Assembly: GCA_964519505.1 (NCBI GenBank)
Contig: CAZFJX010000002.1
Location: 72,958-136,957 of the forward strand
Origin: an uncultured Desulfurococcales archaeon
Lineage (GTDB): Archaea > Thermoproteota > Thermoprotei_A > Sulfolobales > CAZFJX01
DNA length: 64,000 nucleotides
Direction of reading: 5' to 3'
Below the pieces are notes generated by a model that was not told where the DNA came from, ran no database searches, and worked only from the letters and a program-made list of their open reading frames with translations. Each line of letters opens with the position of its first letter. Position 1 is the stretch's first letter. The position numbers and the translations under genes are program-made. This document shows, piece by piece, positions 3,382 to 63,247 of the stretch.

Positions 3382-3842
3382 TCCTTACAGAAATTACAAG
3401 GGCAGACCCTACCCTCTTTTTTAACCATTGGTATCCCGTGAGGGCATTCTAGAGGCTTGCCCATTTTCTCCCATAACTCCATTATAACTGTATAAGGTAC
3501 TTTGTTCTGTATCCTTGAAGCAATGCAACATGCTTCATTGGGTGTTAGGCCAGCCTTAACAAATATATGTTCTAGAATCCCGTGAGCATGTATTAACATG
3601 CGCGCTAAAACACATCCATTACCAGTTAACGTTACGTAACCGCGTTTAACCACACATGTTAATCCTCTCTTGGCTAATTTCCTAACCATTATGGATACTG
3701 TCGGTAGGGCTAAGTTTAGGTGCTTTGATAGGTCACTAATCTTGATAGGTCTGGAGTCACCCCCTAACTCAAAAATCGCTAGTATGTACTTCATCTCGCA
3801 ATCAGATAATTCAGTTATTCCTAGTGAGGACTCAGCCTTCAT
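3378..3842 (-). CDS. DtxR/MntR-family metal-dependent transcriptional repressor
   Basis: N-terminal wHTH (ISDLSKHLNLALPTVSIMVRKLAKRGL) followed by a dimerisation/metal-binding region with His and Cys ligands. Last gene of the metal ABC transporter operon, overlapping the permease gene by 1 nt. Confidence 0.8.
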   Translation of the reverse strand: MKAESSLGITELSDCEMKYILAIFELGGDSRPIKISDLSKHLNLALPTVSIMVRKLAKRGLTCVVKRGYVTLTGNGCVLARMLIHAHGILEHIFVKAGLTPNEACCIASRIQNKVPYTVIMELWEKMGKPLECPHGIPMVKKEGRVCPCNFCKD

Positions 3843-4660
3843 TACCTCTTCACCTTAAGCAATTCACTAAGTATTAGTGTTGCTGCTGCGAAAATACCTA
3901 ACCCACCACTTGGTGGTAGATAAGCTATGTAAGCAAGTATGTATCCCCCAAGGGCGATTGCTAAAGCTATAAATATAGATAGATGCATATACTTCCTCCT
4001 AGATAGTTGTAAGGCGAGAGCCCCAGGCGCTGCGATAGTTATGTGGGCAGCTATTATGCCTATGGTCATTGTAAGAGTTATGGCTAATATGGCTATGACT
4101 GTATAAAGTACATACCTATAGAGTCTAACATTGAGGCCCATAGATCTAGCTCCTAACTCATCAAACGCTATGTATATAATCTCCCTCCTAAACAGCAGTA
4201 CTAATGCTCCGACAACCGCTGAGGCTGCGATTAATAAGCTTATGTCTGAAAGAGTGATTATCGATGAAGTACCAACGACTAAAGACCACGCCTGAGCAAT
4301 AGCTATACTTGATTTGGTAGCTACAAAATAGCTAAGCACCACGGTGATTGCTGAAGATATGGCTATCATGACGCTAGCAGCAGTATCAGGAGGGTACCCA
4401 CGCTCAACTAATTCAGCAGTGAGTATGGCCACTAATATCACGTATATTAAGGCAACATGAATCATAGGAACCGAAACACCGCATACGTAATATAGATAAA
4501 CAGCTAGTACTCCCCCAGCTAAGACGTTATGAATCATTGAAAGCCCTGTAAGCAATGTTTTAGCTAATGTGAGTAACGGACTAGATATACCGACTAAGAC
4601 ACCGCTTAGTAATGATGCTATTAAAACCCTTAATAAGAGAGGATCAACCATGATCCTCAC
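3842..4660 (-). CDS. ABC-3 family (Mn/Zn/Fe chelate type) transporter permease
   Basis: 272-aa polytopic membrane protein in an operon with the ATPase and a cluster-9-type binding protein. Overlaps the ATPase gene by 17 nt. Confidence 0.8.
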   Translation of the reverse strand: MRIMVDPLLLRVLIASLLSGVLVGISSPLLTLAKTLLTGLSMIHNVLAGGVLAVYLYYVCGVSVPMIHVALIYVILVAILTAELVERGYPPDTAASVMIAISSAITVVLSYFVATKSSIAIAQAWSLVVGTSSIITLSDISLLIAASAVVGALVLLFRREIIYIAFDELGARSMGLNVRLYRYVLYTVIAILAITLTMTIGIIAAHITIAAPGALALQLSRRKYMHLSIFIALAIALGGYILAYIAYLPPSGGLGIFAAATLILSELLKVKR

Positions 4661-5417
4661 CGAGAACTATAAGGTTCTTGAACTCTACAGTTCCTGGATA
4701 AACCTTCCTAAGGATTTCCGGCCTTAGCACCTCATGAGCCTTACCGACCGCATATACCCTCTTATTAAGCAGTATTACTAACGGCTCAAAGGGTATACAG
4801 GGACTTACCTCATGAGCCACCATTAAGATATCTATCCCTATCTCGGTATAAAGCTTATATAGTAGTTCAGCTAATTCACACTTCATGTGGAAATCAAGCA
4901 TGGAGAATGGTTCATCAAGAAGAAGCAATTTAGGTCTCCTAACCAATGCTCTAGCTATCATTACCCTCTGCTTTAACCCACCACTAAGTTCACTAAATAA
5001 GCATTCCTTACATTGCTCGATCTCAAGCATCTTGAGCACTTTATCGACATATTCGTAATCCTCCTTTAAAGGTATCCTAGGCGCTTTTCTAGAGCTTAGT
5101 AAGCCCATCATAACAATATCCTTAACCAATAGGGGTATGGACTCATCAACCTGTATGAGTTGCGGTACGTAACTAACCAGTTTAGATATTTGACCTTTAT
5201 CACGGTGCGGTACGTAGCCATAGACCTCAATATACCCTTTAGTAGGTTTAAGTAACCCGGCAATAACCTTAAGTAAGGTGGTTTTACCTGCACCATTAGG
5301 TCCCATAACTATTGCATAAAAAGGTGACTTAAGTTCTAGACTTATATCCTCTAACGCCCTTATCTTAGAATTAAAAATTACTGAGACCTCCTTTAATTTT
5401 AAATTATTACCCCTCAT
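4644..5417 (-). CDS. ABC transporter ATP-binding protein (metal import type)
   Basis: Walker A GPNGAGKTT, signature LSGGLKQR, Walker B LLLLDEP. Confidence 0.88.
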   Translation of the reverse strand: MRGNNLKLKEVSVIFNSKIRALEDISLELKSPFYAIVMGPNGAGKTTLLKVIAGLLKPTKGYIEVYGYVPHRDKGQISKLVSYVPQLIQVDESIPLLVKDIVMMGLLSSRKAPRIPLKEDYEYVDKVLKMLEIEQCKECLFSELSGGLKQRVMIARALVRRPKLLLLDEPFSMLDFHMKCELAELLYKLYTEIGIDILMVAHEVSPCIPFEPLVILLNKRVYAVGKAHEVLRPEILRKVYPGTVEFKNLIVLGEDHG

Positions 5418-5421
5418 TTAA

Positions 5422-6435
5422 TCACCTATGGGTAATTCTAATTATTAATGTAGCTAGTACTGTAAGGAGTACTATGTTACTTATTGCTAGGGCCAATGTT
5501 AGTTCTGTAAGGTCTTGCTGAGGAACTATATTTAACTCGGTATGTAAGGTGCATTTAGGAATCTCAGTAAGTAATCCAAGTACTACGTCATAAGGGTCTT
5601 CTCCCGTAACATTAATTACTACGTACGTTATACCGCTCTCTTCTAGAAATGAAGTGATTTTAGGGTTATGGTTCAAATCAGCATCAGTTAATAAAACGCA
5701 ATCTATTTCTCCCTTACGATATAAGTCCTTCACGTGATTAAGTTTAGCTAGTGAAGGTTCAACACCTAACTCAGGCACTATAATAGTAATGGTACTTATG
5801 TTTAAGTCATGAACAACGTACTGAAGTATAGGTGAGTATAAAGCTACCCTTAAACCACCATACTTTTTTGCACCGTAAACGTAGATTCTTGTGAGCGTAT
5901 CTAGGTATTTCATAGACTTAGCCTTCACCACACTTAACTTACTGTAATTAATTTTCATCAATGAATCCATGAACGTTAATAATACGGCCCTAACACCACT
6001 CAAGGAGAAGAAGAATCCATGATAATTAATTGAGTTATCAACCTTTAGGGGCCTTAATCCGTGAAGTACGTAGTCTTGAAAACCTAGTACTGTAGCGTTA
6101 ACTAAACCCTCAGACCTCAACTTAAAAATGCGTTCTTCAGTAACTGTATGCTTAGGACCTGAAGTAATGACTATGTCAGCCCTTCTCAAATATTTAGTAA
6201 GTTCCCTTAGTGGTACTTCATATTTATGAGGATCAACCCCCGGAGGCACTATATTTTCAACGGCTATTCCCTCATCAATTACAGATTCAATTATATCATG
6301 CATGGGCTTTATAGTCGTGATCACTAATATTTCCGTCTTGGCTGAATCGGCAAGCATAATATTCGATATACTTAACAACATCATAATCATCAGCATTACT
6401 AGGCATAATTTACTGAGGCACACATCCATGACCAT
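5422..6435 (-). CDS. Metal (Mn/Zn) ABC transporter substrate-binding protein, TroA/ZnuA-like, with C-terminal membrane anchor
   Basis: N-terminal signal-like hydrophobic segment, a DPH-containing metal-site string (PPGVDPHKYE) and a C-terminal hydrophobic span. First gene of the operon. Confidence 0.7.
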   Translation of the reverse strand: MVMDVCLSKLCLVMLMIMMLLSISNIMLADSAKTEILVITTIKPMHDIIESVIDEGIAVENIVPPGVDPHKYEVPLRELTKYLRRADIVITSGPKHTVTEERIFKLRSEGLVNATVLGFQDYVLHGLRPLKVDNSINYHGFFFSLSGVRAVLLTFMDSLMKINYSKLSVVKAKSMKYLDTLTRIYVYGAKKYGGLRVALYSPILQYVVHDLNISTITIIVPELGVEPSLAKLNHVKDLYRKGEIDCVLLTDADLNHNPKITSFLEESGITYVVINVTGEDPYDVVLGLLTEIPKCTLHTELNIVPQQDLTELTLALAISNIVLLTVLATLIIRITHR

Positions 6436-6477: not shown

Positions 6478-8817
6478 TTACGAAGAAGATTCGTAGTAGT
6501 AACATATATCGCCAACATTTACGGCATAATAGTGCTTATTACCTTCCTTATTATCCGTTACATGCAATATGGGTCTTTCAAATAATTTAGATAGCTTAAC
6601 TAAATCATTAAATGAACTAATCTTCAACTTACTTGTTACGTTATCTAAACTCTCAACATTAACTATTATATCGCCATACTCACGCATTATCCTCTCATGC
6701 TCACTTAACTTTACTCCCTTCATGAATAGCTTATAGTATATCAGAAAGAATAATAATGCAGAGGACATTAGAATAGCGTATGAGATATTTCTTAAAGACT
6801 TTACATCAGTGTTTATTAAGTTAAATAATTCTACCTTATTGCTTACTTCTTTAAAGCTTATCGGGTTAGATGATGATTTAGACCTTAGATTGTGGAATTT
6901 AATTATGTTATTAGAATAGCTCATTTCAATAGTTGCTTGTGGTGTAAATGTCTTTTCAATAGAGCCTCCTGACTTTCTAGGTATGTAGGACTTAATCACG
7001 GGTTTTATGGTGATAACGTATGAAGGTGCCGAAATGCCTGTCTCCTTCCTTATCTGGGTGATTAGTGACTTAACTTCGCTAATATTTAATCTCAGTACTT
7101 CATATATCCTTGATTCATTAAAGATCTTCTTAGGTACGTGTATGACGTCCTTACTCCATTCACCAGGCTCTTCAAGGGTTACGTAGATTTCGTAGTAACC
7201 ATGTATAGGTCCCTCAGGGTTCGAGCTTATACTTATATTCATAAATATCACTAGTTCTTCAGTAAGCGTGAGGTATATCTTATCTAGATTACTTACTGTG
7301 GTTTTATTATAAACTATGTTTGGTTTTAGTAGAGCACTATATGAGTAATCAGCCATCAGTGTATATGAATAGTCTTTATAGATAGGTTCCTTTACGGTAA
7401 GTGGTAAAGCATGTGTATATACCGTAAAGAGTGAGGATAATATGAGCAAAACTGCAGCCGACAGTACCACTGTGAGTTTTACTAATTTCTTTCTAGATAA
7501 ACTAATGCTCTTCTTCCCTGATTTCATACTTTTACTCAATTTACTTAACCTACTTTTCTTTCTAGTATTATGCTTTACAGATTTACTCAGCACTATATAA
7601 GTTACTATGGAAGAAAATACTATAAATGAGGCAAATCCGGTAGGTGTTGTTAAGTAATTAATTAAAGCACCTGTAAATACCCAGAAATGCATCGTTAAGA
7701 GACCTAAGTAAGGTACTATAGCTATAACCTTACCCATAAGGTTCTTCTCAGTTGCCATTACCGGGTCTACATCGGTATTATTGTCACCTTTGGTTACGTA
7801 ATATTTAACCCCATTTATCTCACGGATATCTACGACTCTATGGACGTATGGGTATTGAGGTCCCATGACCTGTATTATGTCATTTACATGTATGTCTGAG
7901 GTATGCATATTTAAGCTACTCACGACTATTAAGTCTCCAACATTTATGGTAGGTCTCATACTGCCACTAACGACAACTGAAATCTTAATGCCGAAGAATC
8001 CTGTTATGAATAGTATCAATATTGAGACAATGGCTACGTAAGTAAATAACTTTATTTCACTCTTACCTATAGTCCTTTTATCGTAAGGATTGCTTAACTC
8101 ATTTATTGTAATGAGTACCGCCATGGGTAAGATTACGCTAGTTAATGAATCATAATACCAGGGTATGTTAGGCATTAATGGCGTTAAATAATAGTAAATG
8201 GTATAGGGTAATAAGAAAAAGACACTTAAGATAGGTCCTCCTAATATAACTATATATGTCAGTAACACGTTTTTAGCTAATAATGGTAATAGCCTAGAAC
8301 TTAGGTACTTAGCCAGTAAGGTTGAATCAGCTATGGCAGTTAATGAGTTAGGATTTAGCTGAATTAATGTAAATATAGATGCTACTACTAAGATTGTTAA
8401 GGGTACGTTTCTCCTTAAGAATCCCTTAAAACCTAAATACTTAATTAAGAAACCCCTAGCGAACTCCATGCCAACTAATGCGGGTAAGGCTCTACCCATG
8501 TTAATTAAGAAACCCTTTAATGATCTATCATAAGGACTTAAACCGGTACCAAGGAAGTAAGCTACTACTATATCCCCTATTATCATGATAGCTGAGGCAG
8601 CTATAGCTGCTAGGTATATATGATTACTTATAGGACTTGTCTTTAGGTGATTTAAGGTCATTAGGACTATAAATCCCCATATGATTGATACTAAGATATA
8701 AGTAAGTGGGTAAGGTATGACAGGTGTGTAAAGAATTATGTGAGTTAGTGCCACGAGTATGAATACGAGAATAAGGAGTCTATTCATGGTTTTCCTATAT
8801 TTTACGTCATGAGGCAT
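6478..8817 (-). CDS. Fusion protein: polytopic membrane domain + archaeal/ER-type (SipW-like) signal peptidase I + bitopic C-terminal domain
   Basis: 779 aa. S26 motifs lie mid-protein (VVSGSMRPTINVGDLIVV, YVHRVVD, TKGDNN). At least 7 hydrophobic spans precede the peptidase. After it come a Lys/Ser-rich linker, a TM span, about 230 aa of soluble region, another TM span and a tail. Directly downstream of two SipW-substrate-like genes. Confidence 0.75.
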   Translation of the reverse strand: MPHDVKYRKTMNRLLILVFILVALTHIILYTPVIPYPLTYILVSIIWGFIVLMTLNHLKTSPISNHIYLAAIAASAIMIIGDIVVAYFLGTGLSPYDRSLKGFLINMGRALPALVGMEFARGFLIKYLGFKGFLRRNVPLTILVVASIFTLIQLNPNSLTAIADSTLLAKYLSSRLLPLLAKNVLLTYIVILGGPILSVFFLLPYTIYYYLTPLMPNIPWYYDSLTSVILPMAVLITINELSNPYDKRTIGKSEIKLFTYVAIVSILILFITGFFGIKISVVVSGSMRPTINVGDLIVVSSLNMHTSDIHVNDIIQVMGPQYPYVHRVVDIREINGVKYYVTKGDNNTDVDPVMATEKNLMGKVIAIVPYLGLLTMHFWVFTGALINYLTTPTGFASFIVFSSIVTYIVLSKSVKHNTRKKSRLSKLSKSMKSGKKSISLSRKKLVKLTVVLSAAVLLILSSLFTVYTHALPLTVKEPIYKDYSYTLMADYSYSALLKPNIVYNKTTVSNLDKIYLTLTEELVIFMNISISSNPEGPIHGYYEIYVTLEEPGEWSKDVIHVPKKIFNESRIYEVLRLNISEVKSLITQIRKETGISAPSYVITIKPVIKSYIPRKSGGSIEKTFTPQATIEMSYSNNIIKFHNLRSKSSSNPISFKEVSNKVELFNLINTDVKSLRNISYAILMSSALLFFLIYYKLFMKGVKLSEHERIMREYGDIIVNVESLDNVTSKLKISSFNDLVKLSKLFERPILHVTDNKEGNKHYYAVNVGDICYYYESSS

Positions 8818-8913: not shown

Positions 8914-9573
8914 TTACCGAGGTAAGAGTTCCTCATACTCATTCCACTGTACAGCCTCGAACGATATTGTTAAGGTCAATGTAGTGTTTTGAGGTGCACC
9001 TTGGAGCACTGTTATATCAAAGCTTATATCAGCTGAGTGGCAAGGTTCCAACTGTGTACCGAAGTTATCGCCCCACCACAGCAGTATATCAGGTATCCCA
9101 TCCCCACTAAGATCAATCTCTATACCCTGCTGTAATACCTGTTCATTTAGCTCGTAATATTCTTCACCATTTATTATGACTCTCCATATCTTTATCGGTA
9201 TAGTACCTGTGTTATGTACCTTGAAAGCTATATGTTCATAGTACCAAGGATACACGTTTATTAGAGTCACTATCATGACTTCATTATCCCCATCGCCATC
9301 AAAGTCACGTAGAACTACTTCGGTGCACCCAACATCTTTATCTAATTGAGTAGATCCTGGTTCCGGTAATAGCGATGCGTTGTAATCATTGACTGAGTAT
9401 AAGCAGCTATCTAAGTGTATTACAGTACCATTAACGAACTCCCAATCAACTATGCCAGTAACTACTTCGGCATTCATCCTAAGGACTTCAGACCACATAG
9501 CGTATGATGCCGAAATTATTACGGCAATCATGAACAGTGTTAATGGGATTGTTATTAATTTCTTAGACCTCAT
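8914..9573 (-). CDS. Secreted TasA/camelysin-like (AbpA-like) fibre subunit candidate, paralogue 1
   Basis: MRSKK + hydrophobic span + SASYA/MWSEVLRMNAEVVTGIVDWE, which has the layout of a SipW-dependent signal. Shares NVYPWY, NTGTIPIK and C-terminal VQWNE motifs with the neighbouring gene product. Confidence 0.65.
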   Translation of the reverse strand: MRSKKLITIPLTLFMIAVIISASYAMWSEVLRMNAEVVTGIVDWEFVNGTVIHLDSCLYSVNDYNASLLPEPGSTQLDKDVGCTEVVLRDFDGDGDNEVMIVTLINVYPWYYEHIAFKVHNTGTIPIKIWRVIINGEEYYELNEQVLQQGIEIDLSGDGIPDILLWWGDNFGTQLEPCHSADISFDITVLQGAPQNTTLTLTISFEAVQWNEYEELLPR

Positions 9574-9595: not shown

Positions 9596-10192
9596 TTACT
9601 CAACCTCATTCCACTGAGCGAATGTTAGCTGTAGTTCAAACGTATATGTATGGTTCTCAAGAGCTTCTTGCAGCACATGAATCACTAACATATACGTATC
9701 GTTATAACCAGGGTCTATCTGGGAACCGTCACCTCCATCCTCATAAAGCTTTAGAAGTACCTCGATATCTGAGAGGTTATCATTATTTAGATCTAGCTGG
9801 TACCATGTATCTAAGTCTATCTCCTTCTCTGTAGCATCGTATATTATCTTAGCACTCTCACGCTTGACTGGTATAGTGCCTATGTTATCCACAACACCGA
9901 AGATGGCTACCTTATAACATGGGTAGGCATTATTAATTTCTACCTTTAGCTTAATTACTTCACTATCCTCATACTCTTCTTCAGTTATGTTTACCGTCGT
10001 TACATCTAGATCGGGTTTCTCATAGGTGTCGTTATGCCAGTAATCACTCCACTCAACGTCCACCTCACCGGTAACTACTATGATGTTGATCCTTAAGGTC
10101 TCTGACCACATAGCAAAGGCAGCACCAACTACTGTCGCTAATATTAGGAATGTTGCGGCTAATAGCACGGACTTCTGTAGTCTACTTGCCAT
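9596..10192 (-). CDS. Secreted TasA/camelysin-like (AbpA-like) fibre subunit candidate, paralogue 2
   Basis: GAAFA/MWSETLRINIIVVTGEVDVE plus NAYPCY, NIGTIPVK and AQWNE. The ORF track starts at 10216. I prefer the internal ATG at 10192 (MASRLQKS...) because it gives a normal n-region/h-region signal and sits about 40 nt from a TTATATA box. Confidence 0.65.
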   Translation of the reverse strand: MASRLQKSVLLAATFLILATVVGAAFAMWSETLRINIIVVTGEVDVEWSDYWHNDTYEKPDLDVTTVNITEEEYEDSEVIKLKVEINNAYPCYKVAIFGVVDNIGTIPVKRESAKIIYDATEKEIDLDTWYQLDLNNDNLSDIEVLLKLYEDGGDGSQIDPGYNDTYMLVIHVLQEALENHTYTFELQLTFAQWNEVE

Positions 10193-10378
10193 ATATATTA
10201 CACCTGCAAGAATCAATAGCGTTAAGTACTATATAATACGTTGCGCATGATTCTTACCGCAATATCTCCCCTAAGAAAAGTTCATGAATTATTTACGGTA
10301 GTTAATAACGTGCAAGTTTTCTACACAAAAGTTATATACTGTCTAAGCAAGTCTAACAAAAACGTAGAGCTGTGTAGG

Positions 10379-11056
10379 TTGGGCGACGGAACTCGTAGCT
10401 ATAGGAGTAAGCTGGAGATTATAATCTCAATACTTAAGTCAATAGAGTCCTCAGGGATGTTAAAGAAAACGCATATACTCTACAGAGCTAATCTAAGTTC
10501 ATCACAACTCAATAAGTACTTAAACATGCTGATAGATAGCGGTACTGTAGCAAAAGTCAAAGAGAGTGATGGTGATTATTACATACTAACTGGGTTAGGT
10601 AGGCTACTTCTTTATGAAATAGAGAAAGCTATTGACGTACTTAACGTTAAGGATAAGGTGAGACCCCAGTTAGAGGACCTAATAGAAGGTATACTAAGGA
10701 AGAGGAGAATGAAGTATTTTAAGAATCATGTAATTAGAGGCGTGACCGGGCTTCAGCATTTCTTTAAGTTCATAATAGTAAATAAGGAGGGTGAGCAAGT
10801 AGCTATTGAGATCATTAAGGGTAATGAGTTAAGCATGTTTTATCAATTAATGAGCTTTTACCTTAGGGTTGCAGACAGTAAAGTTAGAGGCATTGTAATT
10901 GTTCCCGAAGACTTAGCCAGCACTATACAGTTAATAAAGAGGAACTTAATAGATGAAACAAAAGTTATTCTTGATGTAGTATTGTTCTTAAGTAAGGAGA
11001 GCTTCAAGTACGACCTAATTAACGTAATAGAACATAGAGGTTTTTATTTAAAATAA
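10379..11056 (+). CDS. Winged-helix (HTH_45-like) transcriptional regulator with uncharacterised C-terminal domain
   Basis: SKLEIIISILKSIESSGMLKKTHILYRANLSSSQLNKYLNMLIDSGTV is a typical archaeal wHTH. The ORF track starts at 10241, but a TTATATA box at 10332-10338 lies inside that extension, so the TTG at 10379 is more plausible. Divergent from the fibre genes. Confidence 0.5.
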   Translation: MGDGTRSYRSKLEIIISILKSIESSGMLKKTHILYRANLSSSQLNKYLNMLIDSGTVAKVKESDGDYYILTGLGRLLLYEIEKAIDVLNVKDKVRPQLEDLIEGILRKRRMKYFKNHVIRGVTGLQHFFKFIIVNKEGEQVAIEIIKGNELSMFYQLMSFYLRVADSKVRGIVIVPEDLASTIQLIKRNLIDETKVILDVVLFLSKESFKYDLINVIEHRGFYLK

Positions 11057-63078: not shown

Positions 63079-63188
63079 TAATGATTAAATGGCGCCGGGG
63101 GCGGGATTCGAACCCGCGCACCCCATAAGGGGTAGTGGGTCTCTCCTCCCTAATGCCGGAGCTCGAGCCCACCGCCTTGGGCCGCTCG
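63079..63188 (-). tRNA. tRNA-Ser (anticodon CGA) with 21-nt intron at 37/38 and genomically encoded CCA
   Basis: Hand-folded cloverleaf: acceptor GCCGGGG/CCCCGGC, 3-bp D stem, anticodon stem GUGGG/CCCAC with loop CU-CGA-G[intron 63130-63150]A, long variable arm (CCCC-UUAU-GGGG), T arm GCGGG-UUCGAAU-CCCGC, discriminator G and CCA. Confidence 0.92.
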
Positions 63189-63247
63189 GCCACCCCGGCT
63201 CCATTTTCTCTCTAACGCTTCAGAATTCTAAAGCTTATCTACTAGCT

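Follow-up and report, generated by a model that had tools for sequence, protein, structure and literature searches.

Fibrils of the TasA superfamily (TasA, AbpA, AbpX, Tafi and the cannulae) are emerging as a common protein scaffold of biofilms in both bacteria and archaea. In the related Tafi system, pilin processing was blocked when the locus peptidase TafD was deleted (PMC11821415). TasA, which carries an aromatic residue at P2', is a poor substrate for Escherichia coli LepB and is cleaved in Bacillus subtilis by the dedicated peptidase SipW (PMC10269814). For AbpX, a preprint of January 2026 states that the N terminus of the mature protein is the donor strand, and it already notes a type I signal peptidase (SPase I) with ten transmembrane (TM) helices at abpX loci (bioRxiv 10.64898/2026.01.04.697558). 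The same preprint describes the architecture of DUF5305 as a TM helix, an extracellular beta-sandwich, a second TM helix and a cytoplasmic alpha/beta domain. DUF5305 has already been proposed to be an accessory of SPase, in some cases fused to the enzyme (bioRxiv 10.64898/2026.01.04.697558; iScience 2025); under the name TafG, it has been paired with the peptidase of its locus, and SPase-DUF5305 fusions have been listed (PMC11821415; PMC12337348; bioRxiv 10.64898/2026.01.04.697558). Here we describe a gene in a 64,000-nucleotide stretch of contig CAZFJX010000002.1 from an uncultured Desulfurococcales archaeon; this whole stretch is called the window below. The 779-amino-acid (aa) product joins an eight-helix N-terminal domain (N-domain), an S26 signal peptidase and a DUF5305 module, a three-part form of which the accessible text of PMC11821415, PMC12337348 and the AbpX preprint contains no mention. 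With a probability of about 0.7, we take this gene to encode a type I signal peptidase dedicated to a matrix-fibril locus of the AbpX type (TasA superfamily), with two partner modules in the same chain. It is a rare fused variant of the system described in 2025-26 and not a new type of machine.

The catalytic core of the protein was identified as an archaeal signal peptidase. It scored 72.2 bits with TIGR02228, the equivalog model of archaeal signal peptidase I (cut-off, 51.85; residues 259-375), and 29.1 with Pfam Peptidase_S26, PF10502 (gathering score, 22.9; residues 262-329). The catalytic boxes were S286 in SGSMRP, H326-R327-V and G344-D345-N-N347, together with D351. In an alignment of 150 sequences, Ser286, His326, Asp345 and Asp351 were conserved at 99-100%, and the positions of the Ser box, HRV and GDxN were conserved at 93-100% each. 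The general base is His and not Lys, which is the Ser-His type of Sec11 and SipW (archaeal/endoplasmic reticulum, S26B). When a model of the full-length protein was compared by Foldseek with the Protein Data Bank (PDB), the best match was human SEC11A (7p2p_A; 29% identity; E, 3.6e-5). With NF046067, the equivalog model of SipW, the protein reached only 58 bits against a cut-off of 190.

The open reading frame (ORF) runs uninterrupted from an ATG start on the minus strand (Table 1). The AlphaFold 2 (AF2) model of the full-length protein, with a predicted local distance difference test score (pLDDT) of 81.3, has eight TM helices within residues 3-242, followed by the anchor helix of the peptidase (residues 252-272). 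Two further helices, 372-390 and 392-428, come after the core. The first is probably interfacial because it is amphipathic in homologues, and the TM part of the second is residues 392-411; in the alignment, stand-alone homologues terminate shortly past the equivalent helix. There are thus 8+1+1 = 10 TM helices ahead of the linker and 12 in the whole fusion protein. The linker KHNTRKKSRLSKLSKSMKSGKKSISLSRKK (residues 415-444) lies in a segment, 412-447, that has 15 Lys or Arg and no Asp or Glu, and the pLDDT drops below 50 at residues 430-441. The DUF5305 module then consists of a TM helix (448-470; helix 442-470 in AF2), a beta-sandwich ectodomain (about 471-671; strands within 484-649), another TM helix (672-699) and an 80-aa alpha/beta tail (700-779; AF2 elements at 706-777) that terminates in ...HYYAVNVGDICYYYESSS. 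By positive-inside reasoning, the N terminus, the linker and the tail are predicted to be cytoplasmic and the catalytic domain and the beta-sandwich to be outside.

Much of this layout had been anticipated by a first-pass annotation made from the DNA letters alone, whose sequence details were all correct to within a few residues. It had placed the S26 core at residues 272-375, behind at least seven hydrophobic spans (eight in AF2) and no Cys, and the sole Cys of the protein is indeed C772. The two spans and the Lys/Ser-rich linker that it had read after the core were found, as was the C-terminal order of TM span, ectodomain, TM span and tail. The ectodomain measured about 200 aa and the tail 80 aa, for which about 230 and about 70 aa had been estimated.

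The genes directly upstream encode the presumed substrates. Compared with the PDB sequence of AbpX, the fibril subunit of Pyrodictium abyssi (9sj2), the 206-aa neighbour gave an E value of 7.9e-5, with WSETL at residue 2 of the mature chain. The match of the 219-aa neighbour was weaker (E, 0.013); with a local AbpX-like hidden Markov model (HMM) this protein gave 2e-79. AbpX-like genes lay directly upstream of the peptidase at all six related loci for which upstream sequence was at hand. Across related loci, the cleavage motif was small-x-small↓(M/H)W(S/T)(E/D), where the arrow marks the cut, with an invariant Trp at P2', and the candidate sites in the window are AFA↓MWSE in subunit 1 and SYA↓MWSE in subunit 2. 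The tie between the peptidase and the two adjacent fibre genes, suspected at first pass, is thus borne out by both gene order and a shared cleavage motif. The abpX-peptidase-DUF5305 arrangement recurred in metagenome-assembled genomes (MAGs) of Desulfurococcales, Archaeoglobales and Bacilli and in a metagenome locus (L003), and the peptidase-DUF5305 pair recurred in MAGs of Thermoplasmata and Dehalococcoidia. Since the aromatic P2' residue makes TasA a poor substrate for LepB, there is a rationale for a dedicated peptidase at the window locus. Furthermore, because the mature N terminus of AbpX is the donor strand, cleavage would be a precondition for polymerisation.

In 31 homologues, the ten-TM peptidase and a complete AbpX-like preprotein formed a single reading frame, joined by a basic linker in the cytoplasm (P0002, P0008-P0012, P0014-P0023, P0025-P0029, P0031, P0033-P0036, P0079, P0081, P0084, P0090 and P0096). 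The AbpX-like part of these proteins keeps a signal-peptide-like TM segment and the cleavage motif, for example ...GFAYS↓HWSETLYISGTV. A peptidase joined to its presumed substrate implies self-processing. These AbpX-fused peptidases have several different sources; SdrD_B or SpaA-type domains are added in some of them.

The three-part fusion is real, rare and lineage-specific. The Logan assemblies of SRR7051321 and SRR7051159 (loci L001 and L002), which are independent of each other, both contained an identical ORF. When 1.84 billion representative proteins were scanned exhaustively with HMMER, two more full-length fusions came up, P0074 (766 aa; identity, 29%) and P0075 (751 aa; identity, 33%), both collinear with the window protein across residues 12-776 and with a similar basic linker. 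They were traced to two MAGs, each named uncultured Desulfurococcales archaeon (loci L005 and L004, respectively). Among the best 150 hits, the three-part fusion accounted for three protein clusters, of which these two could be assigned to Desulfurococcales MAGs. The gene order in L005 was that of the window (AbpX-like, AbpX-like, fusion), and the L004 contig began at the fusion gene. A winged-helix regulator of the HTH_45/Sso10a type adjoined the fusion gene in both L004 and L005 and the cassette in L003. The join has been retained at about 30% identity and is therefore old and under selection. A word-indexed protein search with the fusion alignment added nothing useful. The Ser box varied between the two homologues: ASTSMYP replaces SGSMRP in P0074 (L005 5938-8238) and ASNSMSP does so in P0075, the catalytic serine being kept in both.

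To place the fusion in its family, 217 retrieved proteins and the window protein were classified with local HMMs. An N-domain with S26 only (about 370-450 aa) was by far the commonest architecture (154/218), followed by N-domain, S26 and an AbpX-like domain (31/218) and by S26 only (24/218). Four proteins combined N-domain, S26 and DUF5305 (the window protein, its duplicate P0001, P0074 and P0075), three had S26 and DUF5305 without the N-domain (P0068, P0109 and P0133), and two had DUF5305 alone. Residues 1-411 of the window protein had over 140 homologues with lengths of 370-440 aa. The long N-domain, regarded as distinctive at first pass, is therefore standard equipment: the N-domain+S26 unit is ordinary in a large peptidase family, and only the DUF5305 join is lineage-specific. 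As for whether relatives keep the parts as separate genes, most of them did, with the DUF5305 gene immediately after that of the peptidase. DUF5305 was a gene of its own in L003 (with one gene between), L007 (Thermoplasmata), L010 (Dehalococcoidia) and L015 (Bacilli), and it was part of the fusion in the lineages of P0074 and P0075. Overall, it was fused to the peptidase or lay just downstream of it in seven of the eight fetched loci with downstream sequence. The window linker corresponds to the K/R-rich C-terminal tail of stand-alone peptidases plus the K/R-rich N terminus of stand-alone DUF5305 proteins. Both of these ends are cytoplasmic, and a read-through fusion is therefore topologically cost-free.

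To our knowledge, no function has been demonstrated for DUF5305 to date. The suggestion at first pass that the C-terminal part was of the DUF5305 type proved right: PF17231 matched residues 572-775 at 44.8 bits (gathering score, 29), and a local DUF5305 HMM gave an E value of 7e-120. The module aligned end to end with stand-alone DUF5305 proteins (P0129, P0187 and the product of a 362-aa gene in L003). It might be TapA-like and anchor the fibril in the membrane or initiate its assembly, holding the first subunit beside the peptidase. Such a role would suit a beta-sandwich of about 200 aa exposed outside, close to where the subunits are set free. It would also suit the conservation of DUF5305 across several types of TasA-superfamily loci, as described in PMC11821415, PMC12337348 and bioRxiv 10.64898/2026.01.04.697558, and no anchor of AbpX fibrils is known to date. 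In addition, the stand-alone DUF5305 protein beside the ten-TM peptidase of the Dehalococcoidia MAG (L010 1308-2966; 552 aa) matched the profile three times in succession, and the ectodomain is thus apparently repeated between its two TM helices; a threefold ectodomain would suit a spacer or an adhesin. We nevertheless consider an anchor rather unlikely. For the ectodomain, the 50 Foldseek matches listed for the full-length model included only weak, generic beta-sandwiches (LEA14, ApaG and TMEM106B-type) and no TapA (6HQC), TasA or AbpX fold, and hhalign gave a probability of 1.9% between DUF5305 and AbpX-like proteins. Together with the low score of the SipW model, these results give no support to the suggestion, also made at first pass, of a TapA-like or anchor function fused to SipW. 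Moreover, the fusions and pairings of DUF5305 repeatedly involve the peptidase and not the pilins (also in PMC11821415), and an anchor would have no use for the conserved cytoplasmic domain of DUF5305.

For the N-domain, residues 1-255 had no Pfam or NCBIfam match. An AF2 model of this region had a pLDDT of 92.9 and a predicted template modelling score of 0.90. The top five Foldseek matches of this model in the PDB were all CPBP/type II CAAX-protease structures, namely, four chains of Methanococcus Rce1 (4cad) and SpdC of Staphylococcus aureus (6u0o_A). Their probabilities were 0.97-1.00, with template modelling scores of up to 0.60 across the entire domain, and all later matches had template modelling scores of 0.24 or less and probabilities of 0.16 or less. 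SpdC matched with a probability of 1.00, template modelling scores of 0.58/0.60 and a root mean square deviation of 5.1 Å over 259 columns. At the sequence level, no Pfam or NCBIfam model, whether of CPBP (PF02517) or of any other family, matched any of 38 N-domains at E values up to 10, and an HMM profile of the N-domain had no match among the PDB sequences. When genuine CPBP sequences were sought for a profile-profile comparison, a motif scan detected none in the window or in 22 loci, and a synthetic CPBP consensus matched neither the PDB sequences nor a plasmid collection. Glu118 and Arg121 were conserved at 99% across the family, in which sequence identity is otherwise only 20-30%, and they lie within TM4, where CPBP motif 1 (EExxxR) lies. 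The most conserved elements of the outer face were GFGxSPY, in the TM3-TM4 loop, and SPxLPxLxW, ahead of TM8, which jointly form a small sheet. The N-domain has no conserved His (the highest column among 122 sequences reached 31%), and CPBP motifs 2 (FxxxH) and 3 (HxxxN/D), which are required in active members, are therefore missing. Because the His motifs are absent while Glu118 and Arg121 are invariant on TM4, the modelled N-domain appears to resemble non-catalytic CPBP scaffolds such as SpbR. SpbR is a degenerate CPBP protein that binds the SPase I SpsB, and LnsB is likewise degenerate (PMC12260438); SpdC orients SagB via its TM3-TM4 loop (bioRxiv 10.1101/2020.05.21.109470). No link between ten-TM SPases and CPBP proteins was found in the literature searched, and the accessible text of the AbpX preprint contains neither CAAX, CPBP nor Rce1. 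The CPBP-like reading of this N-domain, which rests on the structural model, is new here.

The N-domain might instead be a second active intramembrane protease, a divergent CPBP enzyme of the glutamyl type using Glu118. It would then remove cleaved signal peptides or cut the subunits again, and each chain would contain two proteases. Both the extreme conservation of Glu118 and Arg121 inside TM4, against the low identity elsewhere, and the fold match with Rce1, an active protease, are in favour of such an activity. We find it distinctly improbable, as CPBP motifs 2 and 3 are absent with no His column above 31%, the Glu and Arg have the ExxR spacing instead of EExxxR, and the closest structure, SpdC, has known functions that are non-catalytic, SpbR and LnsB being degenerate too (PMC12260438).

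It is very unlikely that the fusion gene encodes the general signal peptidase of the organism and lies beside the fibre genes by chance. The fusion ORF is the only S26 gene within the 64-kb window, which would speak for a housekeeping enzyme; however, the recurrence of the abpX-peptidase-DUF5305 arrangement from Desulfurococcales to Archaeoglobales, Bacilli and L003, that of the peptidase-DUF5305 pair in Thermoplasmata and Dehalococcoidia, and the fusion of the peptidase to an AbpX-like preprotein in 31 homologues argue for a dedicated one. A frameshift or mis-assembly that merged separate peptidase and DUF5305 genes, which a one-base error could do where these are adjacent or overlapping (the genes are separate in L003, L007, L010 and L015), can be dismissed, given the same ORF in two independent assemblies from different runs and the uninterrupted fusion with a similar basic linker in two more lineages that are just 29-33% identical.

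A mechanism can be proposed for the dedicated peptidase. Both upstream preproteins would be exported by Sec and kept tethered by their signal peptides. The Ser286-His326 domain on the outer face would cut after the small-x-small residues of the candidate sites, and the cut would free the N-terminal strand for insertion into the next subunit (donor-strand complementation), thereby licensing polymerisation. The N-domain would be non-catalytic. It would hold the anchor helix and position the catalytic domain via the GFGxSPY loop between TM3 and TM4, through contacts among these three parts that we assume here, and it may also bind the membrane-embedded signal peptide of the substrate. By analogy, degenerate CPBP proteins do likewise for SpsB (SpbR) and SagB (SpdC). 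The DUF5305 module would assist as an accessory subunit, which in relatives is encoded separately just downstream. The fusion could have arisen when the intergenic stop codon was lost, such that the basic tail of the peptidase continued into the basic N terminus of DUF5305. An assembly platform for the adjacent fibre proteins, as imagined at first pass, would be consistent with this arrangement.

Some observations weigh against this proposal. The N-domain has ExxR with a single Glu where CPBP motif 1 has EExxxR. SpbR inhibits its peptidase rather than helping it, and the sign of the effect could differ here; it is more likely that a permanently fused N-domain helps the peptidase or confers specificity. 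Finally, the AF2 confidence was low for the TM helices of DUF5305 (about 57-65), and docking of the module onto the peptidase is therefore not predicted.

A bolder version of the proposal, which we regard as tentative and on balance doubtful, is that the CPBP-derived N-domain recognises AbpX-type signal peptides via Glu118 and Arg121 and hands the subunits to the peptidase. The protein family would then be a self-contained, substrate-selective machine for the maturation and assembly of donor-strand fibres. If this were true, the ten-TM family would play the role for donor-strand fibres that an usher or a sortase plays elsewhere, and the natural fusions, to DUF5305 and, in the 31 homologues, to an AbpX-like preprotein, would show which parts make up the working complex.

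The features of the locus are listed in Table 1.

Table 1. Coordinates of the fusion gene, its parts and the adjacent genes in the window
Feature	Position	Strand	Basis
Whole ORF: CPBP-like 8-TM domain + S26 signal peptidase I + basic linker + DUF5305 module	6478..8817	(-)	
N-domain, residues 1-245: eight TM helices and a small outer-face sheet of two strands (91-93 with 214-216)	8083..8817	(-)	
Glu118-Phe-Ala-Arg121 codons, TM4	8455..8466	(-)	coordinates verified
Anchor helix (252-272) and S26 catalytic ectodomain (about 277-371, beta-rich)	7705..8064	(-)	
Residues 372-411: amphipathic helix, then C-terminal TM helix of the peptidase	7585..7704	(-)	AF2, hydropathy, alignment
Lys/Ser-rich cytoplasmic linker, residues 412-447	7477..7584	(-)	
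DUF5305 module, residues 448-779	6481..7476	(-)	Pfam PF17231, local HMM, AF2
Intergenic stretch from subunit 2 to peptidase, with the hairpin ACCCC-ATTTTT-AGGGGT followed by TATATAA	8818..8913	(-)	read from sequence
AbpX-family fibril subunit 2, 219 aa; signal peptide end ...SASYA↓MWSEVL	8914..9573	(-)	
AbpX-family fibril subunit 1, 206 aa as listed; signal peptide end ...GAAFA↓MWSETL	9596..10216	(-)	
Divergent winged-helix regulator, HTH_45 / Sso10a family	10241..11056	(+)	

In the intergenic region ahead of the peptidase, TATATAA lies about 27 nucleotides (nt) before the ATG at 8817. Judged from the sequence, the hairpin could be an attenuating terminator after highly expressed subunit genes, and TATATAA could be the peptidase's own promoter, giving a near-leaderless mRNA. 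Their placement favours Met1 (8817) over Met11 (8787), the start in the public gene call. The probable start of subunit 1 is the ATG at 10192, which gives 198 aa, and a 198-aa gene is called in L001. The mechanical starts, TTG 10216 and TTG 10241, leave 24 nt between the divergent genes; the public calls (ATG 10192 and a 269-aa regulator) leave about 54 nt with two TATA-like elements.

The 219-aa subunit contains the motifs DFDGDGDNE and DLSGDGIPD, with FG-GAP matches below the cut-off, and its 206-aa paralogue carries LDLNNDNLSD. These motifs look like calcium-binding loops, in line with the calcium dependence reported for AbpX assembly. Directly downstream of the fusion gene, at 3842-6435 on the minus strand, are genes for a ZnuA-type binding protein, an ABC ATPase, an ABC-3 permease and an iron-dependent repressor. 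These ZnuA/ABC genes (5422-6435 and beyond) are probably unrelated to the peptidase cassette because they do not adjoin it in L003-L005. The single Rfam match in the window was a tRNA at 63093-63199 on the minus strand. It spans 107 nt against a model of 71 positions and therefore probably contains an intron; tRNA introns are common in archaea.

The natural fusion is evidence of the Rosetta-stone kind that the peptidase and DUF5305 act as a single physical unit. The modelled fold of the N-domain would link the ten-TM peptidases to CPBP scaffolds that control membrane hydrolases in Staphylococcus, one of which is a signal peptidase, and would give the extra helices of the ten-TM enzymes a testable role through E118, R121 and the GFGxSPY loop. 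A single-chain complex derived from a thermophile would also be a convenient object for cryo-electron microscopy and reconstitution.

Compared with known systems, the catalytic domain finds its closest solved relative in the eukaryotic signal peptidase complex (SEC11A/C and SPCS1-3; 7p2p), in which the catalytic subunit likewise sits amid membrane-spanning accessories. This resemblance is organisational only: among the matches listed, neither the N-domain nor DUF5305 showed likeness to SPCS1, SPCS2 or SPCS3. The tapA-sipW-tasA operon of B. subtilis is similar in that a dedicated Sec11-like peptidase adjoins TasA-superfamily subunits with an aromatic P2' residue. SipW differs in having two TM helices and neither a CPBP-like nor a DUF5305 module, and the window protein falls short of its family model, NF046067; the window locus is also without a TapA homologue.

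The S. aureus pairs SpbR-SpsB and SpdC-SagB (PMC12260438; 6u0o) resemble the N-domain and peptidase of the window protein in arrangement, as each combines a degenerate CAAX-protease-like protein of eight TM helices with a hydrolase that crosses the membrane once. The partner of SpbR is a type I signal peptidase, SpsB, and in structural terms the N-domain matched SpdC best. Contact is made through the TM3-TM4 loop, and the same loop holds the most conserved outer motif of the window family. In contrast, the modules of the window protein are covalently joined, the peptidase is of the Ser-His and not the Ser-Lys type, and sequence similarity to CPBP proteins is below detection. For DUF5305, the TafG-type fusions with SPase (UniProt E8MZY1 of Anaerolinea; WP_147270848 of Haloplanus; PMC11821415) share the architecture, the pairing with a peptidase and the fusion to S26, although the S26+DUF5305 fusions that we retrieved (P0068, P0109 and P0133) are without the eight-helix N-domain of the window protein. 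The ten-TM SPase I enzymes of AbpX loci, such as WP_338249487.1 of P. abyssi, have the same N-domain, S26 core and C-terminal TM helix (8+1+1), match TIGR02228 and lie directly downstream of abpX-like genes. They are typically about 380-440 aa long, whereas the window protein, with 12 TM helices and 779 aa, adds a complete DUF5305 module in frame.

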